A stretch of DNA of 64,000 bases from contig CBFGIY010000001.1 of the NCBI GenBank assembly GCA_965648935.1, forward strand, positions 40,216 to 104,215, in the 5' to 3' direction. The notes beneath the pieces were generated by a model that was not told where the DNA came from, made no database searches, and worked only from the letters and a program-made list of their open reading frames with translations. A program made the position numbers and the translations under genes. Position 1 is the first letter of the stretch. The number at the start of each line of letters is the position of its first letter. Below, in pieces: positions 1-49,098 of the stretch. The stretch is from a candidate division WOR-3 bacterium (lineage in GTDB: Bacteria > Hydrothermota > Tepidihabitantia > Tepidihabitantales > Tepidihabitantaceae).

Positions 1-736
1 CGACATAGGGCGAAACCGACAGGACCCGGCCCATGCCCAGCTCGCGACGCGACTCGGTCTCCACCAGCCGGTAGCGGCCGCCTGGCCGCACCCGGTCGCG
101 CCAGAAAGACTCGACGAAAAGTCGCGCCTGCAGCTGCGGCGAGCCGAGCGTTATCTTCGAGTCGTCGCCTGCGGCCAGGGTCTGGCCCAGACGCACGTCC
201 AGCTTGTATACAACCCCGTTCGCCGGCGCGCGCAGCGTGAGCTGTTCGAGTTGGGCGCGCGCCAGCTTCAGCTCGGCCTGCGCCGCCGCGGCTGTCGCCG
301 AGTCCAGCTCGGCCTTGAGTCTGAGCTGGGTCAGGTCCTGGTCTGATACTCCCTGCGTCGCGTTCAGACCGGCCGCCCGCTCGTAACTGTCGCGGCTGAT
401 GGCCCTGGCCCGTTCCGCCGCGGCCAGCCGCGCCTCGGCCGCCGCGACCTGCGCCGCCTCCACCGAGTTCTCGCACACCAGCAGGGCCTGGCCCGCCTCG
501 ACCGTGTCGCCCTCGGCCGCAAGGATGGCGCTGACAGGGCGCGGCACGCGCGCGGCCACGTGCACCGGTCCGCCCAGCGGCTCGACTGCCCCGTACATCC
601 GCACCGGCGCCGCGGCCGCATCGGGCGGCTCGGGCGTCGACTTCCGCGGCGCGGACCGCAGCAGCGCGACCACCACGAACATCAGCACGACCACGACCGC
701 GACCGGCACCGTCGCCCGCCTGACAAATCTCTTCAT
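1..736 (-). CDS. HlyD-family periplasmic efflux adaptor (MacA-like), partial; 3' end lies beyond the window start
   Basis: Not in the ORF track because it has no stop in the window. Reverse-strand translation from the ATG at 736-734 gives MKRFVRRATVPVAVVVVLMFVVVALL (N-terminal TM anchor), then a coiled-coil (EAAQVAAAEARLAAAERA), then a beta-barrel motif QLEQLTLRAPANGVVYKLDVRLGQ. It lies 1 nt downstream of the ABC ATPase. Confidence 0.7.
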   Translation of the reverse strand, partial: MKRFVRRATVPVAVVVVLMFVVVALLRSAPRKSTPEPPDAAAAPVRMYGAVEPLGGPVHVAARVPRPVSAILAAEGDTVEAGQALLVCENSVEAAQVAAAEARLAAAERARAISRDSYERAAGLNATQGVSDQDLTQLRLKAELDSATAAAAQAELKLARAQLEQLTLRAPANGVVYKLDVRLGQTLAAGDDSKITLGSPQLQARLFVESFWRDRVRPGGRYRLVETESRRELGMGRVLSVSPYV

Positions 737-737
737 C

Positions 738-1457
738 TCAACTGCCTCCAGTCCCGGCGCGCGAGTCGTAGACCACCGCGCCGTCTTCCATTCTCACCAG
801 CCGGTCAGCATAGGGAAACACGCGCGGGTCGTGCGTCACCAGCACCACCCCGCGCCGCGGGTCGCGCGACAGCCGCTTGAGCGTGTCCAGCACCAGCCGG
901 CTGGAATCGACATCCAGCGCCGAGGTCGGCTCATCGCAGAGGAGCACGGCCGGGTCGCTGACGAGTGCCCGGGCGATCCCGACACGCTGCTGCTGGCCGC
1001 CCGAGAGCTGGCTCGGCCGCGCGTCGAGGTAGTCGCCCATGCCCAGTTCCTCAAGTAGCTTCACCGCCGACTGCCGGGCGCTGTCGGTCAGCCGGCCGCC
1101 CTGCACCGCCAGCGCGATGAGCACGTTGTCCAGCGCCGACAGCGCCGGCACCAGCGCCGCCTGCTGGAACACGAATCCGTACTTCCGCAGCCTCAGTGTC
1201 GCGAGCTCGTCCTCGGACCGGCCGGTCACGTCCTCGCCATCAACCTCGATCCGGCCGTTGCTCGGGCTGAGGACCAGGCCCATCACGGTCAGCAGGGTGG
1301 TTTTACCCGAACCCGAGGGCCCGGCCAGCGCGGTCAGTTCCCCGGCGAAGACATCGAGCGTCGTTTCCTTCAGCACGCGCCGCACCACGCGGCCGTCCGA
1401 GAAGTCGCGCGCCACGCCGTCGAGGCGCAGCACCGCCCTGGCCGCGCTCGTCGCCAT
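738..1457 (-). CDS. ABC transporter ATP-binding protein (MacB/LolD type)
   Basis: Walker [13 protein letters not shown] signature LSGGQQQRV and Walker [12 protein letters not shown] are present. The start at MATSAARAV (ATG 1457-1455) overlaps the permease stop as ATGA. Confidence 0.85.
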
Positions 1458-2578
1458 CAGCGAAAAGCCGAAGCCGGCTCGATGGCGAGCGCCCGGCGCA
1501 GGGCGATCGCCGAACCGGCCAGGCACAGCAGGTAAGTCAGCAGCACGTGCGCCGGCGCCAGCCACAGCGGCAGGTTTGCGGGCAGGCGCGAACCCTTGAC
1601 CCCGAACAGGAACCCGGCCAGCAGGAAGAACCCGACCAGCAGCCCGATCGAACCGATGGTCAAGGCCTGGTACAGGATGATGGCGAACACGTCGCGCCGC
1701 CGCGCCCCGAGCGCGCGCAGCACCGCGAAGTCGCGCTGGCGGTTGAGCACGTTGGTGTACATCGTCAGGGTTATGATGACCACGCCGACAATGATGCCGA
1801 TGAGCGTCGAGAAGCCGAAGCTCGACCCGATGCCGGTGCTCGTCAGGTTGTAGACAATTGTGTTACGCGCCAGCTCGGCCGACGTGATTGCGTCGGCCGC
1901 GGGCAGCAGCGCGCGGATGCGCGCGAGCGCCTGCGCGCGGTCCGCGCCCGGCCTCAGCCGGATCAGGATGTTGCTGCACCGGTCCGCGGGCAGGCCGGTC
2001 ACCTCGCGCGCCTTGGTCGCATTGGTGAACACCAGCGGCGGCCCGAACGCGCGCGACCCCTGAGTGTAACCCGCAACCTCGACCCGGCGCGAGTTGATCT
2101 CCACGACCTGGCCGATTGAGGGCCGGCCGAGGTCGGCCAGGTCAAATGTGTCCACGGTCACGGCGTCGTGCGCGAGCAGAACGGCGTTGCTGCCCCGGGC
2201 GAACTGCCACGGTCCGCCGGCCAGGGCCGGCCGCACCACGCCCACGACCGTCACGCCCTGAAAAGTGCCGTCGCTCAGGCGAAGCTGACCTCCGCCATAG
2301 ACGAGCGGCTGGGCCCACTCCACCTCTTCCAGCCCGACGATGCGGTCGACATAGCGACTGGGCAGGCTGCCCGCGGTGCCGAGCGTGCCCGCGTTGCGCG
2401 ACAGCACCCAGATGTCGGCCCCGCTGTTGTCCACCACCGCGGTCATCAGCGTCAGCAGCCCGAAGAGCACGGCGAGCTGCTGCCCGACCAGAAAAACAAT
2501 GGAAATCACGCCCAGTATCGCGCCGGCGGTGGTCGACCGGTCGTGCAGCAGCATCCGGACCGCGGCGTGCCTACGCAT
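1457..2578 (-). CDS. ABC transporter permease, FtsX/MacB-like
   Basis: 373 aa with an N-terminal TM, a large periplasmic domain and three C-terminal TMs, which is the FtsX/MacB topology. It is coupled to the ATPase downstream. Confidence 0.8.
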   Translation of the reverse strand: MRRHAAVRMLLHDRSTTAGAILGVISIVFLVGQQLAVLFGLLTLMTAVVDNSGADIWVLSRNAGTLGTAGSLPSRYVDRIVGLEEVEWAQPLVYGGGQLRLSDGTFQGVTVVGVVRPALAGGPWQFARGSNAVLLAHDAVTVDTFDLADLGRPSIGQVVEINSRRVEVAGYTQGSRAFGPPLVFTNATKAREVTGLPADRCSNILIRLRPGADRAQALARIRALLPAADAITSAELARNTIVYNLTSTGIGSSFGFSTLIGIIVGVVIITLTMYTNVLNRQRDFAVLRALGARRRDVFAIILYQALTIGSIGLLVGFFLLAGFLFGVKGSRLPANLPLWLAPAHVLLTYLLCLAGSAIALRRALAIEPASAFR

Positions 2579-3662
2579 CGCCCAGCAGCTCCCTTGCCGC
2601 GCGGTCGGCCTCGTCGAACCGGCTCACCACGACCACGCCCGGCCGCGCCAGACGCTCTGCCGCAAGGTTGGCCGCATAGCCGCCGAGGACTACCTTGACT
2701 CCGGGCAACTCCCGGCGCAGCGTCTCGACCAGTCTCCTTGCCGCGGGCAGATTGGTGATATGCTGGACCGAGAGGAACGCGGCCTCTGAAGCGGTCGAAC
2801 GCAACCCGCGCACGAGATCCACTTCGGGCACGCCGCGGCCGGTGTAGCAAACGCTCCAGCCGCGCCGCTCCAGCTCGACTCCGACCAGCCAGGCCCCGAC
2901 TTCGTGGTCCTCGCCCGGTACGCAGCCGACCAGCCCGCTGCGGTCGGCTGGGCCCGGCTCGGCCAGATCGTCGTACATCCGCACCAGCGCATACCGGCAG
3001 ACCTCGGTTGCGGCGTGCTCCTCTACGACCGAAATCTCGTTGCGCTCCCAGCGCCGGCCGATTTCAGCGAGCGCCGACTGCACGATGGCCGTGACGCGCG
3101 ACTCCGGAGTCCGGTCCGAGCGCTCAAGCAGGAACACGGCCGCGGCCCGGCGATTGCGTTCCAGCAGGATGCCGGCAAACGTCCGCGCTTCGGCAGACAG
3201 CCCCGGGGCCGGCTTCTCCGAAGCCGGTCTACCGGCGATTGGCTTGAGCTGATGCAGCGGCCCGGTCAGCACCGCGGCATCGAGCCGGCCGAGCCTTGCG
3301 TCAAGCGCCAGTATCCAGGCATCAAGCAAGTGAGCGAAGAATCCTGGTTCGAACCCCCGCGCAATCAGAACTCGCTCAATCCACTCCAGCTCGCCGCCCA
3401 GCAGTCCGACCAGCCCGACATCAAGCAGGGCGGCGTAGGTCCGTCCGAAGAGCAGGCTGTACTCCTCGACCAGCGCGGCGTTCTCGCAACCCGGGCCGAG
3501 GCACTCGAACCGCGCGTCGAGCGCGAGCTTCTCGCTCGCGGCCGCGGCAAGCGCCGGCAACTGCGCCTCCAGCGATGCGACTGCCCGTTCAGACGGCGAC
3601 TGACTGGTGTTCATCTGGCGAAAGCCTCGCGCGATTGTAGTGCCGACAACCGCGCGGGGCAA
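2571..3662 (-). CDS. Cobalamin (B12)-binding domain protein with an unknown ~170-aa N-terminal domain
   Basis: The C-terminal half has a B12-binding-2 helical bundle followed by a Rossmann B12-binding domain carrying the DxHxxG-type motif GEDHEVGAWLV. There is no MerR HTH and no radical-SAM CxxxCxxC motif. An alternative start is ATG 3614 (MNTSQ). It overlaps the permease start by 8 nt. Confidence 0.6.
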   Translation of the reverse strand: MPRAVVGTTIARGFRQMNTSQSPSERAVASLEAQLPALAAAASEKLALDARFECLGPGCENAALVEEYSLLFGRTYAALLDVGLVGLLGGELEWIERVLIARGFEPGFFAHLLDAWILALDARLGRLDAAVLTGPLHQLKPIAGRPASEKPAPGLSAEARTFAGILLERNRRAAAVFLLERSDRTPESRVTAIVQSALAEIGRRWERNEISVVEEHAATEVCRYALVRMYDDLAEPGPADRSGLVGCVPGEDHEVGAWLVGVELERRGWSVCYTGRGVPEVDLVRGLRSTASEAAFLSVQHITNLPAARRLVETLRRELPGVKVVLGGYAANLAAERLARPGVVVVSRFDEADRAARELLGDA

Positions 3663-3674
3663 GGCCCGCCGGCA

Positions 3675-4826
3675 TCAGGCTCTCGGCCCGGGCAGGATGC
3701 GACCCTTCCACGATGCCCTGCCGCGCAGCGTGAGATACATCGACCGGGCACCGATTGCCGCGCCGCATGCGACCGCCGCCGGCCCGAGCAACCCAAGGCA
3801 GAGCGGGTAGCGCCAGCGCAGCGCGGTGACCAGCCAGAGCAGCGCGCCCAGTGCCCAGCCCAGCCCGGCCATCACCAGCGAGAAACCGGAGACATCCGCA
3901 CCCAGCGCGGCCAGCGCCAGTACCGCGACCGGTTGCCAGTAAGCAACCAGCAACCAGAGCCAGGCGAAGATGAAAGCCGCAACCCCGCCCCCGAAAGCCG
4001 GAAACAGATTCTTACTGAAGCCCGCGAAAGCCTCGCGCCCGGACCGGTACATACGACAGCGCAGATAATCCATTCCATCGACCAGCCGCCAGACCAGTCC
4101 CGCCCGCGCGACGCGCCGCACCAGCGCCAGGTCATCGACCGCACTGGTACGCACCGACTCGTGCCCGCCCGCGCGTTCGTATGCCGACCGCCGAAACAGC
4201 AAGTACTGGCCATTGGCCGCGGTGAAAGCAGGATTGCGCCAGCGCTCGACGACGCGCACCGCGAGAAAGCAGGTGATGCTCCAGAGCATTATCGGCACGG
4301 TCAGCGCCTCGCCCGGTGTTCCCACCTCCTCATATGGCACCAGCGACAGCAGGTCGGCGCGCTCGGCATGCAGCGCCGCGACTGCCCGGCCCAGGCAGTC
4401 GGGCGCGTGCCTCGTGTCGGCGTCGGTGAACAGCAGCAGCTCCCCGCCTGCCGCCTGCGCGAGCTGATGGCAGGCCCACGACTTGCCGACCCAGCCCTCG
4501 GGCAGCATCGCCCCTTCAATCAGGCGCAGCCGAGGCTCCGACCGCGCGAGCCGCATTACTGCTTCTCTCGTACCATCGCTGGACTGGTCGTCAAGAACGA
4601 GCAGTTCGAAGTCGGGATACTCCTGCGCGAGCAGAGACCCCACGACAGCTTCGGCGTTGTGCACCTCGTCCCGCATCGGCAGGCAGATTGACACGCGCGG
4701 CTGAACTGCCCCGGGCCGGTATCTCCCGAGTCGGCGAAACGACAGCGCGTTGTAGAGCGCGATCAGCAGAATAACTGACAGGAAGACGACGATGCCGGCC
4801 TGATGCTCGATCCAGAAGAGGTTCAA
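3675..4826 (-). CDS. Membrane-bound family-2 glycosyltransferase (CrtQ/HpnI-like lipid glycosyltransferase)
   Basis: The long ORF 3675..5402 is real only downstream of the PlsY stop. A TTG start at 4826 overlaps the PlsY TGA as TTGA. There is an N-terminal TM (IVVFLSVILLIALY), the GT-A motifs SICLPMRDE, LDDQSSDGT and FTDADT, and several C-terminal TM helices. Confidence 0.65.
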   Translation of the reverse strand: MNLFWIEHQAGIVVFLSVILLIALYNALSFRRLGRYRPGAVQPRVSICLPMRDEVHNAEAVVGSLLAQEYPDFELLVLDDQSSDGTREAVMRLARSEPRLRLIEGAMLPEGWVGKSWACHQLAQAAGGELLLFTDADTRHAPDCLGRAVAALHAERADLLSLVPYEEVGTPGEALTVPIMLWSITCFLAVRVVERWRNPAFTAANGQYLLFRRSAYERAGGHESVRTSAVDDLALVRRVARAGLVWRLVDGMDYLRCRMYRSGREAFAGFSKNLFPAFGGGVAAFIFAWLWLLVAYWQPVAVLALAALGADVSGFSLVMAGLGWALGALLWLVTALRWRYPLCLGLLGPAAVACGAAIGARSMYLTLRGRASWKGRILPGPRA

Positions 4827-5425
4827 CGTCTGCTCCGACGCAGCAGCGGCCCCGGTCCGGGTCGATGCAGGTCGCGGCGGTGCTTCCACAGCAACAGCGC
4901 AAAGTCTGCCAACCAGAAAACATAAACCGCGGGCTCGGCCCCACGCACCAGCCAGTATGCCAGCAGCACGACCATACCCCCGAGAACTACCCAGCCGCTG
5001 CCTGCCGTCAGCAGTCCCAGCAGTGCGAACCCGCCTCCCAGCACTGTCGGCCCTTCCCAGAGAGTCAGGCCGCACCAGGCGCCGAATGACGCGGCAATCG
5101 CCTTGCCGCCCCTGAATCCGAGCAACGGGGAAAACGCGTGGCCGAACACCGGCGCGGCTGCGACCGGCACGAGCCACCAGCCGCTGGCCCCGAATACCCA
5201 GCGCGCCAGCCCGACCGGCACCGCGGCCTTCAGGAAGTCGAGCCAGAGCGCGGGCAGACCCACCCGCCACGACCCTGCCTTCCATGCATTGACCGCGCCC
5301 GGGTTGCCGTCGCCGACCTTTCGGATGTCCTTTCTGGAGAATGCGCGCGCGAGCCACGCCGAAAAAGGCAGGCTGCCTGATGCGAACCCGGCTCCGACCC
5401 ACAGCAAAGCCAGACCGACCGTCAC
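4823..5425 (-). CDS. plsY: Glycerol-3-phosphate acyltransferase PlsY
   Basis: The conserved GDGNPGAVNAWKAG motif (the G-S/D-G-N-x-G-A-x-N block) is present, in a multi-TM ~200-aa protein. Confidence 0.85.
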   Translation of the reverse strand: MTVGLALLWVGAGFASGSLPFSAWLARAFSRKDIRKVGDGNPGAVNAWKAGSWRVGLPALWLDFLKAAVPVGLARWVFGASGWWLVPVAAAPVFGHAFSPLLGFRGGKAIAASFGAWCGLTLWEGPTVLGGGFALLGLLTAGSGWVVLGGMVVLLAYWLVRGAEPAVYVFWLADFALLLWKHRRDLHRPGPGPLLRRSRR

Positions 5426-5450
5426 TGGGCCGACCCGGGCAGACGCGGTC

Positions 5451-7568
5451 TCAACGAACTACCGCGAAACGGGCGGTCGCGGTTCGGCCGCCCTGACGGG
5501 CGAGCGCGAAGTAGCTACCGACCGGCAGATGTGCCGTCGCCATCCTCGCGCCTGTGCCCGGTTCGAGGTCCAGCGTTGCGACAGCCTGTCCGAGGCAGTC
5601 CGCGACCGTAACCCGGACCAGTCCGTCCCAGACTGCGTTCACGGCGAAAGTCACCGAACCGCGGCCTGCGAGCGCGGTGAGCCCGGCTTCAGGCCGATCA
5701 GCCCGACCGGTCTCGGACACCCCGGTGTACAGCTTGCGGTATCCCTGCACGCCGTCCCAGTAGTCCGCGATGTAGACGTGATCGCCGACAACCGCGACAC
5801 CGTGCGCTGATCCGGGTGTCGTGTAGTGGCCGGCGTTGCGCGGCGAGCTCGGTGCATCGACCCGCACGACCCTGAGCCCGGCGTCGTGGTCGGCGACACA
5901 GACGAAAGGGTAGGCTGTGGCCACGCCCCGCGCCAGGCCGGGTGTGTTGTACGAACCGACCTCGCGCGGACTGGCCGGGTTGGAAACATTGATGACCCTC
6001 AGACCTTGGTTGTCGTCCGCGACATACGCGTAGTTGCCGTAGAGCGCCACGCCGCAGGCCGTACCCGGCGTATCAACGAAGCCGACCTCGGTCGGGTTGC
6101 CCGGACCGGCGATGCTGACAATCCTCAGGCCGGCATTGCCGTCGGCAAGGAAGGCGTGGTCGGCGCGCACGGCGACCCCGGTCGTCCAGCCGGGTGAGTC
6201 GTATAACCCGGCTTCCCACGGCGTGGCCGGTTCGGCAAGTTCCACAACCCGCAACCCGTACTGCTCGGCCGCAACATAGGCTCGAGTGCCGGCCAAGGCC
6301 ACGGCTGCGGCCGGCCCGGGCAACGGGCAACGTCCGACAGGCGCGGGCCGAGCCGGGTCGGCGACATCGACAACCACCAGGCCGGCGGTGTCGCAGGCGA
6401 CCGCGGCCAGACCGGACCTCACTGCCACGCCGCGCGCCGACCCGGGCAGGGGACAATGCCCGACCTCGCGCAGGTCTCCGGCGTCAACCGAGAGAACTCG
6501 CAGTCCGTCCGGACCGCAGGCGACGAAGCCGTGCCCGGCATCAATGCACAATGCAGTCGCGGGTCCGGGGACCCCGAATCGCGCCTCAAGCCGCGGGTTG
6601 AACGGGTCTCGCACATCGATGACATACAGCCCGGCGTCGTTGCCGGCACAGAAAGCATACCCGGCGAGCACCGCAACATCGTAGACCTGTCCGGGAAGGT
6701 CGATCGCGCCGATCTCGAAAGGAGCCAGCGGATTTCCGATGTGAATGACGCGCAGGCCCGCATCAACATCGGCGACATAGGCGTAATCGCCGGCCAGCGC
6801 CACCCGCCATGCCGTGCCCGGCGTGTCGTGGGAGCCGAGCATCACCGGTGCGGTCGGCACGCTGACGTCGAGTATGTGCAGTCCCGCGCTGCCGTCGGCC
6901 ACGTAGGCGAAACTGCCGCGCACCACGATATCCCGTGCCTGTCCCGGCGTGTCGAGAAGTCCGCGCCGCCGGGGGTGGGTCGGGTCGGTCGCAAGCAGCA
7001 CGACGACCCCCAGCGCGTCGTGGGCCACGAGGGCGTAGTCGCCCGCCAGCGCCACGCTCCATGCGAAACCGGTCGTGTCATAAGAGCCGACCTCGCTCCA
7101 GTCGCTCAGGCGGACGACACGCACTCCCCGGCCCTCGTCGGCAATCCACGCGTGCGTCGGGCTGACGGTGATGTTCTCGGCCAGGCCCGGCGTGTCACGG
7201 CCGCCGAGCCGGACCGGCGCGGCTGGGTCGGCGATGTTCCACGCCTCGACGCCTTCGGCGTAGTCGGCGATGTAGAGCCGCCGCGTGCCCGCGTCGTAAT
7301 GCAGGCCGCGCGCCCAGCCTCGGCTGTGCACGGCTTCAGAGACCCTGGTCGGCGCGGCCGGGTTCGACACGTCGACCACGTACACCCCGCCGCCGGACCC
7401 GACGAAGACCAGCCCACGTGCAGTATCCACAGCCACGCACCAGCTCGGGCCGAAAGGCCAGTTGCCGACAAAGGTAACGTACTGCGAATCGGCAAGGGCC
7501 TGAGCACCTGCGCCGGGCAACGGCATCCCGGCGACCAGAGCTGATAGTACTGAACCGATGGCGCTCAT
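5451..7568 (-). CDS. Secreted LVIVD-repeat beta-propeller protein with a T9SS-type C-terminal sorting domain
   Basis: There is a signal peptide and about 12 repeats of the pattern A(G/Y)A(Y/F)VAD...GL(R/H)V(I/V)D(V)S(N/D)P, which is the LVIVD repeat. The C-terminal ~70 aa ends ARFAVVR, like the other cargo tails in this window. Confidence 0.75.
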   Translation of the reverse strand: MSAIGSVLSALVAGMPLPGAGAQALADSQYVTFVGNWPFGPSWCVAVDTARGLVFVGSGGGVYVVDVSNPAAPTRVSEAVHSRGWARGLHYDAGTRRLYIADYAEGVEAWNIADPAAPVRLGGRDTPGLAENITVSPTHAWIADEGRGVRVVRLSDWSEVGSYDTTGFAWSVALAGDYALVAHDALGVVVLLATDPTHPRRRGLLDTPGQARDIVVRGSFAYVADGSAGLHILDVSVPTAPVMLGSHDTPGTAWRVALAGDYAYVADVDAGLRVIHIGNPLAPFEIGAIDLPGQVYDVAVLAGYAFCAGNDAGLYVIDVRDPFNPRLEARFGVPGPATALCIDAGHGFVACGPDGLRVLSVDAGDLREVGHCPLPGSARGVAVRSGLAAVACDTAGLVVVDVADPARPAPVGRCPLPGPAAAVALAGTRAYVAAEQYGLRVVELAEPATPWEAGLYDSPGWTTGVAVRADHAFLADGNAGLRIVSIAGPGNPTEVGFVDTPGTACGVALYGNYAYVADDNQGLRVINVSNPASPREVGSYNTPGLARGVATAYPFVCVADHDAGLRVVRVDAPSSPRNAGHYTTPGSAHGVAVVGDHVYIADYWDGVQGYRKLYTGVSETGRADRPEAGLTALAGRGSVTFAVNAVWDGLVRVTVADCLGQAVATLDLEPGTGARMATAHLPVGSYFALARQGGRTATARFAVVR

Positions 7569-7656
7569 GGCACTGACGCAGTCTAGTCTTTGCCCCGGCG
7601 CGCGTCAACCGCGGCCGGCTTGACTTGGCCGCGTGTCTCGGCTAGATTCTGGGCAC

Positions 7657-7730
7657 GCGCCCGTAGCTCAGCTGGATAGAGCGGCAGACTCCGGATCTGC
7701 AGGCCACGCGTTCAACTCGCGTCGGGCGCT
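7657..7730 (+). tRNA. tRNA-Arg (anticodon CCG)
   Basis: The cloverleaf was folded by hand: acceptor GCGCCCG/CGGGCGC, D-stem GCTC/GAGC, anticodon stem GCAGA/TCTGC with loop CTCCGGA, T-arm ACGCG-TTCAACT-CGCGT, discriminator T. It is 74 nt. Confidence 0.85.
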
Positions 7731-7762
7731 TTCTCTGTCCCTAGACCCACCTGGAGGTTCTG

Positions 7763-8281
7763 ATGGACTTCTACAAGGCAGTCCAGTCCCGCCTGAGCAT
7801 CCGCGCCTACAAGCCTGACCCGGTACCGGAGGAAGCGCTGAACCGCATTCTCGAAGCGGCGCGGCTCGCTCCCTCAGCGAAGAATCTCCAGCCGTGGAAG
7901 TTCATCGTGGTCAAAGACCCCGCGGTCCGCGCCGCGCTCATTCCCGCCTGCCGGGGTCAGGCCTTCGTCGGCGAGGCTCCGCTGGTCATCTGCGCCTGCG
8001 CGGTCGAATCGGAAGCCTGGACCAATATGGGCGGGTACTGGAAATCGGACATCGTCGACGTCACGATTGCGTTCGAGCATATCGTGCTTGCCGCCGCGGC
8101 CGAGGGTTTCGGCACCTGCTGGATCGGCGCGTTCCTGGAAGAGGAAGTCCGCAAGGTCCTGGCGATACCGGCCGGCGTCAAGCCCGTCGCCCTGACCCCG
8201 CTCGGCTACCCTGCGCGCGAGGCGAAACCGCGCCCGCGCAAAAGCCTGTCCGAGATTGTCTGCTGGGACCGCTACTGCTGA
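7763..8281 (+). CDS. Nitroreductase-family protein
   Basis: Nitroreductase fold motifs are present: RLSIRAY, LEAARLAPSAKNLQPWKFIVV and AAEGFGTCWIG. Confidence 0.85.
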   Translation: MDFYKAVQSRLSIRAYKPDPVPEEALNRILEAARLAPSAKNLQPWKFIVVKDPAVRAALIPACRGQAFVGEAPLVICACAVESEAWTNMGGYWKSDIVDVTIAFEHIVLAAAAEGFGTCWIGAFLEEEVRKVLAIPAGVKPVALTPLGYPAREAKPRPRKSLSEIVCWDRYC

Positions 8282-8718
8282 GCCGGCTCGACCTCGCGCT
8301 CCATTATCAGCGCGTCCTCGCCGTTCTCGTAGTAGCCCTTGCGCGTGAACGTCGGCACGAAACCGTGCGTAGTGTAGAATAGCCGGGCCGCCGCGTTGGA
8401 AACCCGCACCTCAAGGTAGGCTGACCTCGCGCCGGCCGCGGCGGCGAACCGCAGCACCTCGTCCATCAAGGCCCGGCCGACTCCGCGCCGCCGGCTCTCC
8501 GGCGCCACCGCGAAGTTGGCGATGTGCAGTTCGTCCGTGCCCCACGCCACCGCGTACCCGACAACCTGTCCGCCCTCCTCCGCCACTATGCAGAGTCCCT
8601 GCTGACGCCCGAGGTCAGACCGAAAGAACGAACGCCGCCACGGATTGGGAAAGATTGCCTGCTCGAGCTCCATCACCCGATCAAGGTCAGCATCGGTCAT
8701 CCGGCGCACAAGCACCAC
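8272..8718 (-). CDS. rimI: Ribosomal-protein-alanine N-acetyltransferase (RimI-like GNAT)
   Basis: GNAT motif A (RRRGVGRALM) and the RimI-like core (GYAVAW...LHIANFAVAPESRRRG). The start may instead be the internal MTDADLD (8700). Confidence 0.75.
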   Translation of the reverse strand: MVLVRRMTDADLDRVMELEQAIFPNPWRRSFFRSDLGRQQGLCIVAEEGGQVVGYAVAWGTDELHIANFAVAPESRRRGVGRALMDEVLRFAAAAGARSAYLEVRVSNAAARLFYTTHGFVPTFTRKGYYENGEDALIMEREVEPAQQ

Positions 8719-8747
8719 GGCGTACTATCGGCGGTGTCGGGCGCGTG

Positions 8748-9779
8748 TCAACCCGGACGGCCGCCCGGCCCCTTGCCGGGCCTGCGACCAAGCAATTCCA
8801 GCACCCGCAGGAGATCGCGGTGGAACGCCTCGGCCGTGTCGGGTGCCGTGGCCTTGCCCGGGTAGATTTCGTACAAAGCCCGGTACTGCGGCGGCGTCAG
8901 GTTCGGCATCCAGACGTTTGCCCCGCGCGCCAGTCCCAGCTCGCGCCCCTGCCCCGGATTCACCGTCGCCAGCGCCGTAGTTGTCGGAATGTTGGCGTCC
9001 GGGCACGCCAGCCGCACCAGAGCCATCGCCCTGGTCGTCATCTCGTCGGTCGCCGGAACCTGCTCTTGGTCAGGCAGCGCCAGCCTTGCCGCATCACGGC
9101 CGAGCGGCGTGTCCGGGTGCGCGAGGTATGGCCCGACCCCGACCATCTCCAGTTCGAGCTCGCGGAACAGCATTATGTCGTCGGCCAGCGACTCGAAGCT
9201 CTGGCCGGGAATACCGACCATCACCCCGGATCCGGTCTCGTACCCCATTGCCTTGATGCGCCTGAGCAGCTCGAGCCGGTGCATTTCCTCGTCGCCGCAC
9301 CCGGGATGGACTGCCCGGAACAGCGCTTCGTCCGACGTCTCGTGCTTCAGCAGATAGCGGTCAGCGCCGGCCGCCCGCCACAGCTCGAGTTCGGCCACTC
9401 TCCGTTCGCCCAGGGACAGCGTTACCGCGAGCGGCGTTTCACCCTTGATGCGCCGCACGACGCGCTCGACCCAGTCCGCGGTCAGGCCCGGGTCCTCACC
9501 GGCCTGCAGCACGACCGTGCCGTAGCCGAGCCGCTGGGCCAGTCGAACGCAATCCATCACTTCGCTCTCGCTGAGCCGATAGCGCTCAATCCGCCGGCCG
9601 GCACGGATTCCGCAGTAGTGGCACGCGCGGCGGCAGTAGTTCGAAACTTCTATCAATCCGCGCAGGTGCACCTCGTCGCCGACGTGCTCGCGCCTTACCC
9701 GGTCGGCATCGGCCCACAGCTCGTCGAGCCGCGAATGGTCGCCTTCCCGCAGCCAGCCGAGTATCTCTGCGCGTGTCAT
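8748..9779 (-). CDS. hydE: [FeFe]-hydrogenase maturase HydE (radical SAM)
   Basis: CxxxCxxC radical-SAM motif CRRACHYCG. It is BioB/HydE-like throughout and sits next to hydF and hydG. Confidence 0.8.
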   Translation of the reverse strand: MTRAEILGWLREGDHSRLDELWADADRVRREHVGDEVHLRGLIEVSNYCRRACHYCGIRAGRRIERYRLSESEVMDCVRLAQRLGYGTVVLQAGEDPGLTADWVERVVRRIKGETPLAVTLSLGERRVAELELWRAAGADRYLLKHETSDEALFRAVHPGCGDEEMHRLELLRRIKAMGYETGSGVMVGIPGQSFESLADDIMLFRELELEMVGVGPYLAHPDTPLGRDAARLALPDQEQVPATDEMTTRAMALVRLACPDANIPTTTALATVNPGQGRELGLARGANVWMPNLTPPQYRALYEIYPGKATAPDTAEAFHRDLLRVLELLGRRPGKGPGGRPG

Positions 9780-11044
9780 TGTGCCTGCCGCGACTGCCGG
9801 TAAGCCTCAAGCGCAGCCGGGAAAGGCTCCAGCGCCCGTTCGAAGATGCCGAGCGACCAGGCTATGGCAAGTCCGTAGTTGGTGATTGGCACGCCCTGGG
9901 CCCGGCATTGCGCCACGCGGTTGAGCACTGCACGGCGGTTGGTCATGCACGCCCCGCAGTGGACCACGAGGCTGTACTGCGACACGTCGGCGGGAAAATC
10001 ATGGCCTTGATGGGTGGTGAACTCGACCTTGCCGCCGACGTACTGGGTGATCCATCGCGGTATCTTCACTCGACCGATGTCGTCGCCGATCGGGTGGTGT
10101 GTGCAGCTCTCGGCGACCAGCACGCGGTCCCCGGGCTTGAGCCGGTCGATCGCGACCGCGCCCCGAACCATCTCGACCAGGTCGCCCTTGAATCGGGCGA
10201 AGAGAATCGAGAAAGAGGTCATCTTCACCCCCGTCGGCGTGTCGGCCGAAACCTTGAGAAACGCTTGCGAGTCGGTCACGACGATGTCCGGCGGCCGGTT
10301 GAGTCGCCCGAGCGCATCCGCGAGCTCGCGCTCCTTCACAACCGCGCAGTAGGCGTCGTTGTCCAGGACATCGCGGATGGTCTGCACCTGCGGTTGAATC
10401 AGCCGGCCGCGCGGCGCTTCCTTGTCAATCGGCACCACGAGCACCGCCATCCCGCCCGGCGGAACGAGATCGCCGATTATCGTCGGCGGGTTCACGAAGT
10501 CCTCAGGTGCCGCTTCTATCAGGGCCTGCCTGAGATCGAGCACGCCGGCGCCGTCACGCGCCGCCGTGCGCACGGTCCGCACGCCATCGGCCCGCAGCTT
10601 CGCCTCGACGCTGTCCGGCGGCGCGGCGATATCGCTCTTGTTGAACACCGCGACGACCGGCACGCCGCGCGCGCGCAGCTCGGCGGCCATCTTCTCCTCG
10701 AACGCGTTCCACCGGCCGGCGTCGGTCACGATGAGACCGATGTCGGTCCGCTCGATGATCCGCCGGGTCTTCTCAACCCGCATCGCGCCGAGCGCGCCCT
10801 CGTCGTCAATCCCGGCCGTGTCGATGAACAGCACCGGTCCCAGCGGCAGCAGCTCCATCGGCTTCTCGACCGGGTCGGTTGTCGTGCCCGCCACTTCCGA
10901 GACGATTGATACCTGCTGGCGGGTCAGAGCGTTCAGCAGCGACGACTTGCCCACGTTGCGTCGACCGAAGATGCCGATGTGCAGACGCAGCGCCCTGGGC
11001 GCGGCCCTCATCGGGACCTCCAACGCGCGCTCTGCATTCTGCAC
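9776..11044 (-). CDS. hydF: [FeFe]-hydrogenase maturation GTPase HydF
   Basis: G1 motif GRRNVGKSS, G3 motif DTAGID, and a C-terminal FeS motif CTHH...HCGAC. It overlaps hydE by 4 nt. Confidence 0.8.
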   Translation of the reverse strand: MQNAERALEVPMRAAPRALRLHIGIFGRRNVGKSSLLNALTRQQVSIVSEVAGTTTDPVEKPMELLPLGPVLFIDTAGIDDEGALGAMRVEKTRRIIERTDIGLIVTDAGRWNAFEEKMAAELRARGVPVVAVFNKSDIAAPPDSVEAKLRADGVRTVRTAARDGAGVLDLRQALIEAAPEDFVNPPTIIGDLVPPGGMAVLVVPIDKEAPRGRLIQPQVQTIRDVLDNDAYCAVVKERELADALGRLNRPPDIVVTDSQAFLKVSADTPTGVKMTSFSILFARFKGDLVEMVRGAVAIDRLKPGDRVLVAESCTHHPIGDDIGRVKIPRWITQYVGGKVEFTTHQGHDFPADVSQYSLVVHCGACMTNRRAVLNRVAQCRAQGVPITNYGLAIAWSLGIFERALEPFPAALEAYRQSRQAQ

Positions 11045-11065
11045 TCTGCCTTCTGCATTCCCCTG

Positions 11066-12712
11066 CTACTCCGGGCTTCCCAGCCGGTTGACCGCCTCGG
11101 GCGCGACCAGTTCGTCGAACCTCTCCGGCGCGAGGCCGTACAGCTCGCCGGCCAGCTCGCGCAGCGACCTGCCCGTGCGCGCCGCCTCCTTGACCAGCGT
11201 CTCGGATTTCTCGTAACCCAGCTCGCCGACCAGCGCGGTCACGGTCGCGGTCGTGTTCTCAACGAACCTGCGGCAGCGCGACTCGTTCGCCTTCAGCCCG
11301 GCGACGCAGTGCAGCCGCAGGATGCGGCAGGCATTGTGCAGCAAGTCCAGCTCGTCCAGCAGGCAGGCCGCGATGAGCGGCATGAACTGGTTCAGTTCGA
11401 GGTTCCCGCCGGCTGCGGCCTGCGCGATTACCGCATCGAGGCCCATCACCATCAGCGCCGCCTGGGCAACCGCCTCGGGAATCACCGGGTTGACCTTGCC
11501 CGGCATTATCGTCGAACCGGCCTGGCGTTCGGGCAGCACGAGCTCGCCCAGCCCGGCCTCCGGCCCGGACGACAGCAGGCGCAGGTCGTTGCTGACCTTG
11601 AAAAGGTTCACGGCGCAGGCCTTCATTATTCCCGACGCCTCAACGAAAGCGTCGCAGTTCTGCGTCGCATCGACGAGGTTCTCGGCCCGGGCCAGGCCCA
11701 GGCCCGTGATCTCGCGCAGGATATCGGTCACCCGGAAGATGTAGCGCCGGGGCGCGCCGATGCCCGTGCCGATGGCCGTGCCGCCGAGGTTCACGGTGCG
11801 CAGCCGCTCGCCGCTCTTGAATACCCGCCAGCGGTCGCGCGCGAACGCCTCGGCGTACGCACCCATCTCTCTTCCCAGAGTGGTCAGCACGGCATCCTGC
11901 ATCTCGGTCCGGCCGACCTTCACGACCCGGGCAAACTCCCGCTCCCTGGCCTGGAACTCCTCCTGCAGCGCGACCAGTTCCTCTTCAAGCTCGGCCAGGG
12001 ATTTGAGCGCCGCGACCTTCAGCGCGGTCGGGTAGGTGTCATTGGTCGACTGGTGTCGGTTCAGGTCGTCGTGGGGCGACACGCGGCTGTAGTCGCCCTT
12101 GCGGCTGCCCAGTATTTCCAGCGCACGGTTCGCCAGCACCTCGTTGACGTTCATGTTGGTCGATGTGCCGGCCCCGCCCTGCAGCGCGTCGACCAGCACC
12201 TGGCTGTCGAGCCGCCCGGCCATCATCTCGGCGCAGGCCGCCTCGATCGCGTCGGCCTTGGCTTCATCCTCGCGCCAGGCCCCGAGCTCGCGGTTGGCCC
12301 GCGCGCAAGCCAGCTTCACGGCACCGTAGGCGCGCACGAGAAAAGAGTGAACCGGCCGGCCGGCAAGCGGGAAGTTCTCCAGTGCCCGCGCGGTGTGGAT
12401 GCCGTAGAGCGCCTCGGCCGGCACGCTGCGCTCGCCCAGGAGGTCGGCCTCGGTGCGCATCTGGGCACCGGCCCGGAACCGGCGAAACTCGCTGCTCACC
12501 AGCTCGGCCAGCCCGGGACCGACGTTCTCGCCGAGGACTGCATACTCGGTGTCGGCGACCACGGTCTCGGCCGGCTCGAGCCGTTCCTCGCCCACGCTCC
12601 AGAGGAAATCCCAGCGCGGCCCGGCGCGGCGGCACAGCCACAGCTTGGCCGGCTGGGAACGCACCAGCCTCTCCAGCGCGGTCCGAAACTCAGAAACAGA
12701 CGTCTCGCTCAT
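11066..12712 (-). CDS. Aspartate ammonia-lyase-like (fumarase/aspartase family) protein embedded in the hyd maturase operon
   Basis: Family signature GSTIMPGKVNP and the aspartase N-terminal block RTEADLLGERSVPAEALYGIHTARALENF. The ATG at 12712 adds an 84-aa N-terminal extension and a 23-nt overlap with hydG. The internal Met at ~12460 would give a canonical 464-aa protein. Confidence 0.75.
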   Translation of the reverse strand: MSETSVSEFRTALERLVRSQPAKLWLCRRAGPRWDFLWSVGEERLEPAETVVADTEYAVLGENVGPGLAELVSSEFRRFRAGAQMRTEADLLGERSVPAEALYGIHTARALENFPLAGRPVHSFLVRAYGAVKLACARANRELGAWREDEAKADAIEAACAEMMAGRLDSQVLVDALQGGAGTSTNMNVNEVLANRALEILGSRKGDYSRVSPHDDLNRHQSTNDTYPTALKVAALKSLAELEEELVALQEEFQAREREFARVVKVGRTEMQDAVLTTLGREMGAYAEAFARDRWRVFKSGERLRTVNLGGTAIGTGIGAPRRYIFRVTDILREITGLGLARAENLVDATQNCDAFVEASGIMKACAVNLFKVSNDLRLLSSGPEAGLGELVLPERQAGSTIMPGKVNPVIPEAVAQAALMVMGLDAVIAQAAAGGNLELNQFMPLIAACLLDELDLLHNACRILRLHCVAGLKANESRCRRFVENTTATVTALVGELGYEKSETLVKEAARTGRSLRELAGELYGLAPERFDELVAPEAVNRLGSPE

Positions 12713-14108: not shown

Positions 14109-14455
14109 CTTTCCATCCCCCTGTCATCGCCGCGGGGTTCGCCTTCCGGCATCTGGTCTCTGACTTCGACCTCGTGCCCTCTGCCGTTCTTCTTCCTCAA
14201 TGCCGCCTTCACGCTCACGCCCGGTATCGAACCCAGCTTCCCGGTCAGGGCCCCGATTTCATCGTTCGTGCCGTCCACGATGACGGCCACGACCGACAGG
14301 TCCCTTTCCCGGTACGGGATGCCCATCCGCCCGACGACTATCGCGGCGTGGTCGGACAGCACCGCGTTCACCCGCGGCGCCGCGGCCAGGCGGTTCTCGA
14401 CAAACACCGCAACCACACCCAGCCGGTGCCCGGCTGCGATATGTGCTTCGCTCAC
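14105..14455 (-). CDS. TM1266-like small regulator of the iron-only hydrogenase system (NikR-C/ACT-like)
   Basis: The ~85-aa core (VVAVFVENRLAAAPRVNAVLSDHAAIVVGRMGIPYRERDLSVVAVIVDGTNDEIGALTGKLGSIPGVSVKAAL) resembles the family found upstream of hydG. It overlaps the hydG start as ATGA. Confidence 0.6.
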   Translation of the reverse strand: MSEAHIAAGHRLGVVAVFVENRLAAAPRVNAVLSDHAAIVVGRMGIPYRERDLSVVAVIVDGTNDEIGALTGKLGSIPGVSVKAALRKKNGRGHEVEVRDQMPEGEPRGDDRGMER

Positions 14456-27138: not shown

Positions 27139-27151
27139 AGCAGTGCAACCT

Positions 27152-33092: not shown

Positions 33093-33114
33093 GCCCTGCC
33101 CGAGAGGCTTCTCT

Positions 33115-33186
33115 TGGGGCGTCGTTCAACTGGCAGGACCCAGGACTTTGGATCCTGTTATGAAGGTTCAACTCCTTCCGCCCCAG
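33115..33186 (+). tRNA. tRNA-Gln (anticodon TTG)
   Basis: Folded by hand: U1-A72 acceptor TGGGGCG/CGCCCCA, D-stem GTTC/GGAC, anticodon stem CAGGA/TCCTG with loop CTTTGGA, T-arm GAAGG-TTCAACT-CCTTC, discriminator G. Confidence 0.8.
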
Positions 33187-33214
33187 GCTATGATGACCGG
33201 CAAAGCGAGGTGAA

Positions 33215-48940: not shown

Positions 48941-49024
48941 TATGCCGAGGGGGGGATTTGAACCCCCATGGAGGTGAGTCCACTAACTCCTGAGGCTAGC
49001 GCGTCTGCCATTTCCGCCACCTCG
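48941..49024 (-). tRNA. tRNA-Leu (anticodon CAG)
   Basis: The 84-nt type-II tRNA is GCCGAGGTGGCGGAAATGGCAGACGCGCTAGCCTCAGGAGTTAGTGGACTCACCTCCATGGGGGTTCAAATCCCCCCCTCGGCA. It is near-identical in architecture to E. coli tRNA-Leu(CAG), with a 7-bp acceptor, anticodon loop CTCAGGA and a long variable arm. Confidence 0.85.
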
Positions 49025-49098
49025 GCAGTCACGGATTGTCGGGCGCGGTAAGGATAGCCGGCCGGGTCGGTCAGTCAAGCATACCCGACGAGAACGCC

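Follow-up and report, generated by a model that had tools for sequence, protein, structure and literature searches.

Why would a stand-alone cobalamin-binding protein be encoded between genes for lipid modification and genes for a tripartite exporter? The question is raised by the first part of a 64,000-nucleotide stretch of DNA from a candidate division WOR-3 bacterium (the window), in which six consecutive ORFs all lie on the minus strand. A preliminary description had recognised these six genes and read them as one coupled operon joining four functions. We found instead that the region is made up of two independent modules, a four-gene cassette of sensor and pump (2–3662) and a PlsY-like/GT2 gene pair (3675–5425), with the following features.

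2–736, minus strand: membrane-fusion (HlyD/RND_mfp-type) adaptor, N-terminal 245 aa (TIGR01730 at 1.3e-22, HlyD_D23, HlyD_3)
738–1460, minus strand: ABC ATPase (DevA/MacB/LolD-like), 240 aa, ATGA overlap (PF00005 at 5.5e-33)
1457–2578, minus strand: MacB/DevC-type (type VII ABC) permease, 373 aa (MacB_PCD, PF12704, aa 17–224; FtsX, PF02687, aa 257–368)
2571–3614, minus strand: stand-alone photoglobin and AdoCbl-binding sensor (permuted photocobilin-type), 347 aa (PF02607 and PF02310, PDB profile search, AF2)
2583–2942, minus strand: Rossmann-type B12-binding domain of the sensor, aa 225–344 (PF02310 at 7e-15)
2970–3194, minus strand: four-helix-bundle cap (B12-binding_2) of the sensor, aa 141–215, with Wx9EH (Pfam, alignment, AF2)
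3234–3614, minus strand: photoglobin (globin-fold) domain of the sensor, aa 1–127 (fold-level match to globin)
3634–3662, minus strand: sigma-70-like promoter TTGCCC-17-TACAAT in the GT2-sensor spacer, predicted from sequence
3675–4826, minus strand: polytopic GT2 (CruC/HpnB/CruG-like, with GT21-like blocks), 383 aa, TTG start (PF00535 and PF13506)
4823–5425, minus strand: PlsY-family paralogue with motif 1 GDGNPGAVN, 200 aa, GTG start, TTGA-coupled (PF02660 at 7e-36)

Gene junctions and the start of the sensor gene

Four of the five junctions were as the preliminary description had stated: plsY and GT2 overlap by 4 nt at TTGA (cgTTGAac), the permease start overlaps the sensor stop by 8 nt (ATGCGTAG), permease and ATPase meet at ATGA, and a single nucleotide separates ATPase and adaptor (TGAgATG). 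The fifth, a 12-nt gap between the GT2 and B12 genes, was wrong. It requires a TTG start at 3662 and hence a protein of 363 aa, which contradicts the 350 aa given in the same description. The start is ATG 3614, backed by the N-termini of homologues and by the database gene call (P0001, 347 aa), and GAGG lies 10 nt upstream of it. As TTG 3662 is the first base of the predicted −35 box, the real GT2-sensor spacer is 60 nt long and carries its own promoter. Three promoter-like sites were found in the region (0.4 expected), and an equivalent, TTGAAC-17-TAGAAT, precedes the sensor gene at the corresponding place in the majority of the related WOR-3 loci that were inspected. The spacer has no terminator-like site, so read-through from GT2 could still occur.

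A photocobilin-type sensor protein

The N-terminal 170 aa of the B12 protein had been said to match nothing. This was true for Pfam, but by fold the domain is a globin; it is neither an enzyme partner of the B12 module nor something new, as this photoglobin and its domain order have been catalogued (PMC8717448, PMC10979010). The photocobilins 8J2X/8J2W came top in a PDB profile search (1e-44 with alignment A3, 1e-25 with alignment A1), followed by CarH (7e-30) and AerR (7TE2, 1.5e-14). The AF2 model was confident (pLDDT 87.5, pTM 0.85), and Foldseek matched its B12 domain to those of CarH and Chloracidobacterium at TM 0.8. Profile matches to the N-terminal domain comprised 134 representatives, nearly all of 340–375 aa. 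All 45 family members sampled had the two B12 Pfam domains and lacked an output domain, and no HTH Pfam match occurred in these or in the B12 protein itself, in agreement with the earlier remark that a DNA-binding domain is lacking.

The cobalamin module is of the sensor type and not the enzyme type, as had been supposed. Among 100 family representatives, the Wx9EH residues of the cap domain (W189, 3048–3050; E199-H200, 3015–3020) were conserved at 98% (W), 94% (E) and 96% (H). The Rossmann domain carries the motif E235-D-H237-E-V-G240, that is (D/E)xHxxG, in which H237 (2904–2906), the predicted lower axial ligand, was 94% conserved. In the globin domain, W78 (3381–3383) aligns with Trp296 of SasPcob, and Trp is kept in 83% of the family. 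E51 (3462–3464) falls about where the bilin-binding Asp (SasPcob Asp270) should be, the alignment position being approximate; across the family this position is D in 47%, E in 20% and H in 8%, with His in other WOR-3 members. A His at the bilin-Asp site lowers biliverdin binding in AbPcob. Since the Asp is replaced by Glu here and by His in other WOR-3 members, bilin binding is uncertain. C38 and C43 are two WOR-3-specific cysteines. Judged from its sequence, the cobalamin protein belongs to the recently described vitamin-B12/globin light sensors, the photocobilins.

A corrinoid carrier for a methyltransferase, or the small subunit of a mutase, is what the database names on P0005 and P0010 (MtbC1; methylmalonyl-CoA mutase B12 subunit) and weak NCBIfam matches (MtbC, 5.5e-8; MtgC, 2e-4) would suggest. 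However, the CarH model outscored the MtbC model (63.7 versus 32.6 bits), photocobilin and CarH lead the PDB ranking, Wx9EH is present, the N-terminal domain is no enzyme, and a methyltransferase or mutase gene adjoined the sensor gene in no locus examined. We regarded this role, already disfavoured, as barely credible.

Linkage of the sensor to a MacB-type pump

All parts of a MacB-type tripartite exporter are present behind the sensor gene: an FtsX-type four-TM permease with the MacB periplasmic core, an ABC ATPase and a membrane-fusion protein, whose gene runs off the window edge (full-length homologues are 288–291 aa). Across phyla, permease identity is 50–88%, and the length of 373 aa is shared exactly by most homologues. 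DevC was its best NCBIfam match, though below the cut-off (78.8 versus 290.35); those for DevA (TIGR02982, 210.5 versus 295.8) and DevB (35.3 versus 129) were missed too, as were the curated thresholds for MacB and LolC/E. Neither the cassette nor its flanks encode a TolC-like outer-membrane factor, and Pfam found no extra domain in the ATPase or permease that would mark a docking site.

A co-occurrence search tied the B12-domain architecture firmly to MacB. The permease gene lay directly downstream of the sensor gene in 22 of 22 family loci of the genome collection, with ATPase and adaptor next wherever the contig was long enough; in the reverse direction, the sensor gene lay directly upstream of all three permease homologues at 52–56% identity. 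The named hosts span several phyla, at least six (WOR-3, Zixibacteria, Ignavibacteria, Desulfobacterota (Desulfobaccales/'delta'), Acidobacteriota, Syntrophobacterales). Cassette junctions ranged from −4 to +36 nt across loci, and the divergence of sensor and permease was correlated (Spearman 0.94). The linkage held in every locus examined and supports the proposed tie between sensor and exporter. We found no paper joining a B12-binding domain, MacB and a photoreceptor. Linkage this tight within an operon is also compatible with a role in transcriptional co-regulation or in handling of the cofactor, and both are weighed below.

The PlsY-like/GT2 pair

The six-gene operon stood for the cassette, whose four-gene order is kept in relatives, but not for the PlsY-like and GT2 genes, which adjoin it in a single sub-clade. 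Only the four nearest relatives, with sensor identity as low as 61%, have them ahead of the sensor gene. The same slot holds a metallo-beta-lactamase-fold gene in other WOR-3 loci, and outside WOR-3 the genes flanking the cassette, including those upstream of the sensor gene, are unrelated. A PlsY-like gene stands directly upstream of GT2 in 48 of 83 loci. The pair is best described, on sequence grounds, as a separate, widespread two-gene lipid-modification unit, which may be co-transcribed with the cassette by read-through in the one sub-clade where the two are neighbours. No literature description of a conserved PlsY-like/GT2 pairing was found.

As reported earlier, the GT2 has TM segments at its N- and C-terminal ends and contains DD/DAD blocks; database call P0147 gives it the same length. 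Its assignment reaches only the general GT2/GT21 domain level in Pfam, with scores far below the curated cut-offs for HpnB (150.1 versus 379), CruG (134.1 versus 600) and HpnI (38.8 versus 310). Many homologues are found at ~50% identity, and the JGI automatic name is 'chlorobactene glucosyltransferase'. Lysophosphatidate synthesis, the function previously given to PlsY, is doubtful: the protein scored 84.5 bits against the PlsY equivalog TIGR00023 (cut-off 137.2) and falls in a paralogue group in which GDGNPGAxN, common to nearly all GT2-paired copies, replaces GSGNxGATN. In L088, a distantly related PlsY copy that has no GT2 partner reads GSGNMGSTN.

Could all six genes nevertheless form one unit, in which a glycolipid is made by the pair and exported by the pump, with the B12 protein gating synthesis or export? 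Same-strand adjacency with no predicted terminator between GT2 and sensor points that way, as does the arrangement kept in the four relatives. DevBCA, which exports glycolipids, is the closest named ABC family, and in an Anaerolineae-type lineage and another WOR-3 genome the pair adjoins photolyase, CarH-like, RudS, UvdE or Pyr_excise genes. However, cassettes mostly lack the pair and pairs mostly lack the cassette, a conserved promoter lies between them, the 130 ORFs flanking the pair showed no enrichment of any neighbour family, and the DevA/B/C thresholds were missed. We consider this model very unlikely.

A proposed light-gated pump and its alternatives

The best explanation, which we hold with middling confidence, is that the sensor is the light-sensing partner of the MacB-type pump in a four-gene cassette that is self-contained and has a promoter of its own. 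This keeps the tie between sensor and exporter from the preliminary description and drops the obligatory link to glycolipid. From the domains, motifs and linkage observed, we infer the mechanism as follows, from cofactor binding, photochemistry and physical contact to the direction of regulation and the cargo. The cassette would encode a cytoplasmic photocobilin-type photoreceptor followed by a three-protein MacB-type tripartite ABC efflux pump. The pump would consist of a 4-TM permease that carries a periplasmic domain, an ATPase on its own polypeptide and a membrane-fusion adaptor, and would work with an outer-membrane channel encoded elsewhere. AdoCbl is predicted to bind base-off/His-on through His237, with Trp189, Glu199 and His200 capping the adenosyl group and the globin residue Trp78 touching the edge of the corrin. 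The AdoCbl-bound sensor would occupy one oligomeric state in the dark; near-UV to green light would break the Co-C bond and shift the Glu-His helix as in SasPcob, altering the quaternary state, and direct protein-protein contact would relay this change to the pump, most probably to its ATPase dimer. Efflux from the periplasm or outer leaflet would thereby be switched by light. Two guesses lead for the cargo, each by analogy: phototoxic tetrapyrroles, as with protoporphyrin IX and MacAB-TolC, or a membrane glycolipid, as with DevBCA.

Genomic context reinforced the light reading. RudS and UvdE genes directly follow the cassette in WOR-3 relatives, and RudS follows it in L119; because the window ends inside the adaptor gene, both are seen only in relatives. 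RudS is a tRNA s4U desulfidase documented in light-responsive operons (PMC11417400). The WOR-3 transcription unit would run on into RudS, which removes photosensitive tRNA s4U, and UvdE, a UV-lesion endonuclease, so that, taken as a whole, the unit looks like an operon for photoprotection.

These light-response genes would also suit a sensor that acts, like AerR, on an unlinked transcription or sigma factor, with light controlling the cassette promoter and, in WOR-3, RudS and UvdE as well; in that case the sensor would regulate the pump without being its physical partner. Stand-alone B12 antirepressors are an established mechanism, AerR is among the profile matches, and the conserved promoter immediately precedes the sensor gene. 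We nonetheless judged such a co-regulator rather unlikely. In none of the phyla examined does a transcription-factor gene regularly accompany the cassette, the translational coupling of sensor and permease by overlaps of 4–8 nt in several lineages suggests roughly stoichiometric output instead of regulator-like levels, and the linkage is specific to the pump, RudS and UvdE being lineage-specific add-ons.

The hosts are mostly anaerobes of sediments, springs and the subsurface, where light may be scarce, and the window encodes HydE/F/G. A dark function would suit them: the protein would sense or buffer a tetrapyrrole (AdoCbl, or else a bilin or porphyrin bound in the pocket of the globin) and couple cytoplasmic tetrapyrrole status to a pump clearing tetrapyrroles or corrinoids from the envelope. 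Globin and B12 domains both bind tetrapyrroles, and protoporphyrin IX is exported by MacAB-TolC (PMC4263509). Yet the Wx9EH adenosyl cap, so strongly conserved here, is the hallmark of the light-sensing CarH/photocobilin class, and UV-repair genes are co-transcribed in WOR-3. Moreover, the substrates of MacB-type (type VII ABC) pumps are periplasmic, and a carrier in the cytoplasm would therefore not deliver cargo to them. A dark function is in our view distinctly unlikely.

Comparison with known systems

The PlsY-like protein shares with PlsY (acyl-phosphate:G3P acyltransferase) the PF02660 fold and the His/Pro and GGK motifs and differs in motif 1, while the GT2 has a catalytic core with flanking TM helices in common with CruC/CrtQ/HpnB-type lipid glycosyltransferases. 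The pump resembles MacAB-TolC, DevBCA, LolCDE and HrtBA in its FtsX-type 4-TM permease with periplasmic core, its ATPase and its membrane-fusion adaptor, and is laid out as separate polypeptides like DevCA. To our knowledge, a cytoplasmic subunit dedicated to sensing light or a cofactor is not part of any of these four systems.

AerR/PpaA is likewise a stand-alone B12-binding protein without a DNA-binding domain, and acts through a partner protein; however, AerR has no globin domain, its sequence relation to the sensor is much weaker (1.5e-14 versus 1e-44 for photocobilins), and no CrtJ/PpsR-type regulator lay near the cassette in the loci examined. CarH/LitR repressors have the same B12 photoreceptor module and motifs and the same association with photoprotection genes (photolyase, RudS operons), but also a MerR DNA-binding domain, which the sensor lacks; its output is presumably by protein-protein contact and not DNA binding. 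The residue after the capping Trp189 is Glu/Gln in the sensor family, as in SasPcob, and His in CarH, which makes a bis-His light state unlikely. In LitR/CarH-controlled RudS/photolyase operons (PMC11417400), as here, RudS (here with UvdE) lies behind a B12 light sensor; the sensor of our loci differs in being no transcription factor, and the genes of an entire efflux pump separate it from RudS.

Closest are the photocobilins (SasPcob 8J2W/8J2X, AbPcob 8J2Y; PMC10979010), which also join a CarH-like AdoCbl module and a globin fold in a stand-alone protein. They are the best sequence and fold matches, and the sensor has their Wx9EH, His ligand and corrin-contacting Trp. Compared with the solved structures, its domains come in the opposite order, globin first, an arrangement of the photoglobin-B12 architecture already on record (PMC8717448; PMC10979010). 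The sensor also differs at the bilin-binding Asp (Glu here, His in other WOR-3 members) and in the added C38 and C43. The hosts of the sensor family belong to uncultured, mostly anaerobic phyla and not to the Actinobacteria, and the family is linked to a MacB-type pump in every locus examined. Stand-alone photocobilins regulate partners via protein-protein interactions, their natural targets being 'less clear' (PMC10979010); the supplement of that paper mentions association with 'transporters (e.g. ABC transporter)' in generic terms only. Since the sensor gene stands directly before the same tripartite pump across phyla, the MacB-type pump is the first concrete candidate target for stand-alone photocobilin-class sensors.

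Organization of the six genes

Six consecutive minus-strand genes lie within the first 5425 nt, in a region of ~70% G+C, as the preliminary description had reported, and Pfam and NCBIfam agree with each assignment below at domain level.

4823-5425, minus strand: PlsY-like gene
3675-4826, minus strand: GT2 gene
2571-3614, minus strand: B12 protein gene (347-aa product, hereafter the sensor)
1457-2578, minus strand: MacB-type permease gene
738-1460, minus strand: ABC ATPase gene
2-736, minus strand: membrane-fusion adaptor gene, cut by the window edge

Four of the junctions read in the sequence as described: a TTGA overlap, an 8-nt overlap (ATGCGTAG), ATGA and a 1-nt gap. The fifth, given as a 12-nt gap between the GT2 and sensor genes, requires a TTG start at 3662 and is actually a 60-nt spacer. 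The N-termini of homologues, the 347-aa database gene call and a GAGG lying 10 nt upstream of ATG 3614 favour that ATG over the TTG as the start. A promoter-like site (TTGCCC-17-TACAAT, 3662..3634, minus strand) opens with the rejected TTG, and most of the related WOR-3 loci that were inspected have an equivalent -35/-10 pair, usually TTGAAC-17-TAGAAT, ahead of the orthologous gene. With translation starting at ATG 3614, the GT2 and sensor genes would thus be separated by 60 nt carrying a promoter. The spacer contains no terminator-like site, so transcription could still read through from GT2. Rfam detected no riboswitch or other RNA element in window 1-9000, its sole match being a tRNA-Arg.

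A sensor-pump cassette recurring across phyla

Neighbourhoods of the sensor gene were collected from nine loci by exact-protein look-up and from 23 loci by a genome scan (one genome per species) that used a sensor-family alignment, A1; loci were annotated by tblastn with the window proteins. A MacB-type permease gene lay directly downstream of the sensor gene in 22/22 family loci from the scan, and the nine look-up loci had the same order. ATPase and then adaptor genes followed wherever the contig continued, and the spacing between sensor and permease matches ranged from -4 to +36 nt. Named hosts were candidate division WOR-3 (most loci), Zixibacteria, Ignavibacteria, Desulfobaccales, a 'delta proteobacterium', Acidobacteriota and Syntrophobacterales. 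Outside WOR-3 the flanks were unrelated housekeeping genes; thus, the four genes travel as a cassette of a sensor and a three-protein pump. Divergence from the window copies was tightly correlated between sensor and permease (Spearman 0.94, n = 21), with the sensor evolving much faster (28-71% versus 49-88% identity). In a reverse search from the permease, homologues were almost all exactly 373 aa, and all three sampled (52-56% identity) had a 355-365-aa B12 protein encoded directly upstream and ATPase and adaptor downstream.

UvdE, a UV-damage endonuclease (Pfam PF03851), and a 320-aa DUF523+DUF1722 protein are encoded after the cassette in most WOR-3 loci that are long enough; three loci (L014, L019 and L022) gave a partial DUF1722 match only and no detected UvdE, and the DUF523+DUF1722 gene was also present at the cassette of L119. 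This domain fusion is RudS, a tRNA 4-thiouridine desulfidase known from light-responsive operons (PMC11417400). As the window ends inside the adaptor gene, RudS and UvdE are inferred in the source genome from relatives whose sensors are 61-71% identical. Upstream of the sensor gene, five loci (L002, L005, L016, L019 and L022) had an ORF of about 190-220 aa with a metallo-beta-lactamase fold; in WOR-3 lineages without the PlsY-like/GT2 pair, it takes that pair's place ahead of the cassette promoter.

The PlsY-like/GT2 pair is a separate module

The preliminary description had placed all six genes in one B12- or light-responsive operon for glycolipid synthesis and export. The four-gene part of this unit recurs across phyla, whereas the PlsY-like/GT2 pair is next to the sensor gene nowhere but in the window and the four relatives closest to it, and we regard the pair as a module separate from the cassette.

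Homologues of the GT2 at about 50% identity number in the thousands, and many carry the JGI automatic name 'chlorobactene glucosyltransferase'; the GT2 itself scores far under the curated CruG, HpnB and HpnI thresholds. A scan of metagenomes with a GT2 alignment yielded 80 loci, or 83 with three earlier look-ups, and in 48 of the 83, nearly all of the closest included, a PlsY-like gene immediately preceded the GT2 gene on the same strand. The two genes often overlap by 4 nt, and the loci with the pair (among L033-L115) come from many metagenomes. Paired PlsY-like proteins share a motif 1 of the form GDGNPGAxN, as opposed to GSGNxGATN in canonical PlsY; the canonical form occurs in a distant, unpaired PlsY copy of one of these loci (L088). 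At 84.5 bits, the protein encoded in the window falls short of the PlsY equivalog cut-off of 137.2 and is, as judged by motif and score, a PlsY-family paralogue of a distinct subgroup. As far as we found, the gene pair is unrecognised, with no description in the literature.

A Pfam census of 130 flanking ORFs revealed no enriched neighbours of the pair (maximum 4/130). In one Anaerolineae-type lineage it lies among genes for a MerR-B12 (CarH-like) regulator, photolyase, a Rieske/VanA_C oxygenase, an MFS transporter, RudS and UvdE, and in another WOR-3 genome RudS and a T4-endoV-like pyrimidine-dimer glycosylase come after it (these two arrangements: L033 1-7164; L036, L039 and L049; L034 5417-8819). 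Such company suggests light-regulated membrane-lipid modification. Since the pair has this partial association of its own with light and UV genes, its placement beside the cassette is plausible but not obligatory. An integrated glycolipid module of all six genes is decidedly improbable.

Remainder of the window

Other features of the window are as follows.

5451-7568, minus strand: LVIVD-repeat protein, 705 aa (PF08309, 2e-89)
7657-7730, plus strand: tRNA-Arg (CCG), between the LVIVD and nitroreductase genes
8748-9779, minus strand: radical-SAM HydE-like gene
9776-11044, minus strand: HydF gene
11066-12712, minus strand: aspartase/fumarase-class lyase gene, between HydF and HydG
12690-14108, minus strand: HydG-like gene
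14105-14455, minus strand: TM1266-like regulator gene
33114-33188: tRNA-Gln (TTG)
48942-49027: tRNA-Leu (CAG)

The LVIVD-repeat gene, 25 nt upstream of the PlsY-like gene and with a promoter-like site at 7608..7580, is a variable insertion: it is present in one related locus (L001, 698 aa) and absent from two others (L008 and L009), where a nitroreductase gene directly precedes plsY. An [FeFe]-hydrogenase maturation cluster occupies 8748-14455 on the minus strand, and the source organism is probably a fermentative anaerobe. On the same strand, at 25783-29578, a 451-aa sigma-54-dependent response regulator adjoins an 808-aa histidine kinase whose sensor part contains FG-GAP repeats; this locus is unrelated to the cassette. 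Among 36 ORFs scanned in the window outside the six-gene region, there were no carotenoid, hopanoid or photolyase genes.

The B12 protein resembles photocobilins

The C-terminal 200 residues of the sensor form a CarH-type module. Its closest solved relatives by profile search were the photocobilins SasPcob and AbPcob (8J2X, 1e-44; 8J2Y, 4e-36), followed by a Chloracidobacterium MerR B12 domain, CarH (7e-30) and AerR (1.5e-14). Close homologues show no variation in the Wx9EH adenosyl-capping motif (W189, E199-H200) or in the lower-ligand His of E-D-H237-E-V-G, and conservation of these residues among 100 family representatives is 94-98%. Like SasPcob, the sensor family has Glu/Gln after the capping Trp, whereas CarH has His at this position, giving its bis-His light state.

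A confident AlphaFold model built from 12 homologues (pLDDT 87.5, pTM 0.85) comprises five N-terminal helices, a linker, a four-helix cap and a Rossmann domain. Foldseek matches to the full model were dominated by the B12 module and did not inform on the N-domain, which no Pfam model matches. The lower places of the fold ranking for the N-domain were taken by an RsbR-type non-haem globin (12.5), several phycobiliproteins (about 12.5-11), 8J2Y (11.0) and then haem globins. In a weak HMM stretch aligning this domain to the SasPcob globin domain, W78 falls on Trp296, which in SasPcob touches both corrin and biliverdin (PMC10979010). At the position of the bilin-binding Asp, the window sensor has Glu and other WOR-3 members have His, with Asp occurring in 47% of the family. 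On this sequence and model evidence the sensor is a photoglobin-plus-B12 protein, globin first. The architecture is of a known kind and contains no new domain: photoglobin was described 'either before or after' B12 domains by Schneider et al. (PMC8717448), and Zhang et al. reported a structural group whose AdoCbl domain is C-terminal (PMC10979010).

The globin domain also carries a C-x-G-P-x-C pair (C38 and C43, window 3486-3503), invariant within the WOR-3 clade and found in only about 22% of the wider family, which could serve as a disulfide specific to this lineage, as a metal site or for attachment of a chromophore.

A word-indexed search returned only 12 close sensor homologues, and an N-domain profile run against 1.84 billion representatives returned 134 clusters, nearly all of which are 340-375 aa long and have this domain N-terminally. 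In 45/45 members sampled, Pfam detected the two B12 domains and no others, and no real fusion to pump components or output domains was seen among the members inspected. In one 173-aa database protein (P0016), the final ~35 residues of the cassette ATPase follow straight after the globin domain; this most likely reflects misassembly, or a deletion running through the B12 module and permease, rather than a genuine fusion. Another apparent fusion (P0042) was a repeat artefact. A 501-aa member (P0126) has a Cys-rich C-terminal extension (…ICGHCKKIRDDEGYWSQLEEYIANHSEADFSHSICPDC…) beyond the B12 domain, the only additional C-terminal element noticed among the longer members inspected.

Databases call these proteins 'cobalamin-dependent protein', 'MtbC1' or 'mutase subunit'. 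NCBIfam scores and the PDB profile ranking led us to reject a corrinoid methyltransferase or mutase subunit, and a role for the sensor as corrinoid methyl-carrier can practically be dismissed. Even read conservatively, the analysis re-annotates at least 134 representative clusters.

Possible link between sensor and pump

The functional readings that follow are computational predictions. In the solved photocobilins, light causes adenosyl loss, a Glu-His helix shift and a quaternary change, which through contacts between proteins activates an enzyme, either fused to the photocobilin or added separately; what the stand-alone forms act on in nature was stated to be unclear, with protein-protein contacts probable (PMC10979010). 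The invariant position of the sensor gene, its translational coupling to the permease gene and the lack of a DNA-binding or enzymatic output domain all fit a physical partnership with the pump. In the best-supported reading, to which we give about even odds, the sensor serves the pump as a dedicated AdoCbl photoreceptor of photocobilin type. The ATPase dimer would be its obvious contact. As MacB-type pumps use cytoplasmic ATP hydrolysis to drive periplasmic work, such a sensor would send a cytoplasmic light signal outward. Action as an AerR-like transcriptional co-regulator would accord with the match to AerR and is fairly unlikely.

More tentatively, the sensor may be a true pump subunit, AdoCbl photolysis directly switching ATP hydrolysis and mechanotransmission of a MacB-type tripartite exporter, with light-gated efflux in at least six phyla. 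Most hosts are anaerobic dwellers of sediments and springs (the window itself encodes HydE/F/G), which calls for caution about light as the physiological signal. A dark tetrapyrrole or corrinoid sensor would suit such habitats and is quite unlikely in view of the conserved adenosyl-capping motif. Were the subunit reading correct, the pump would be the first physiological effector identified for stand-alone photocobilins.

Comparison with known systems

B12-based photoreception is a young field. The sensor adds a new member to a known class and the pump is of MacB type, but their fixed four-gene union across phyla appears undescribed. ABC, MacB, FtsX and efflux are absent from the text of the photoglobin paper (PMC8717448), as are transporters and efflux from that of the SignatureFinder paper, and our literature search found no publication combining a B12-binding domain, MacB and a photoreceptor. 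[quoted passage not shown] The cassette gives these forms one specific candidate partner that recurs across phyla, and turns the question of their targets into an experiment on three proteins: sensor, ATPase and permease.

Among related pumps, MacAB-TolC exports the photosensitiser protoporphyrin IX (PMC4263509). A direct sensor-pump link would make ABC-type membrane transport a new output class of B12 photoreceptors, and the cassette would then exemplify a cytoplasmic signal sent outward via a type VII ABC transporter and offer synthetic biology a compact green-light efflux switch. The nearest named family to the cassette pump is DevBCA, which exports glycolipids.
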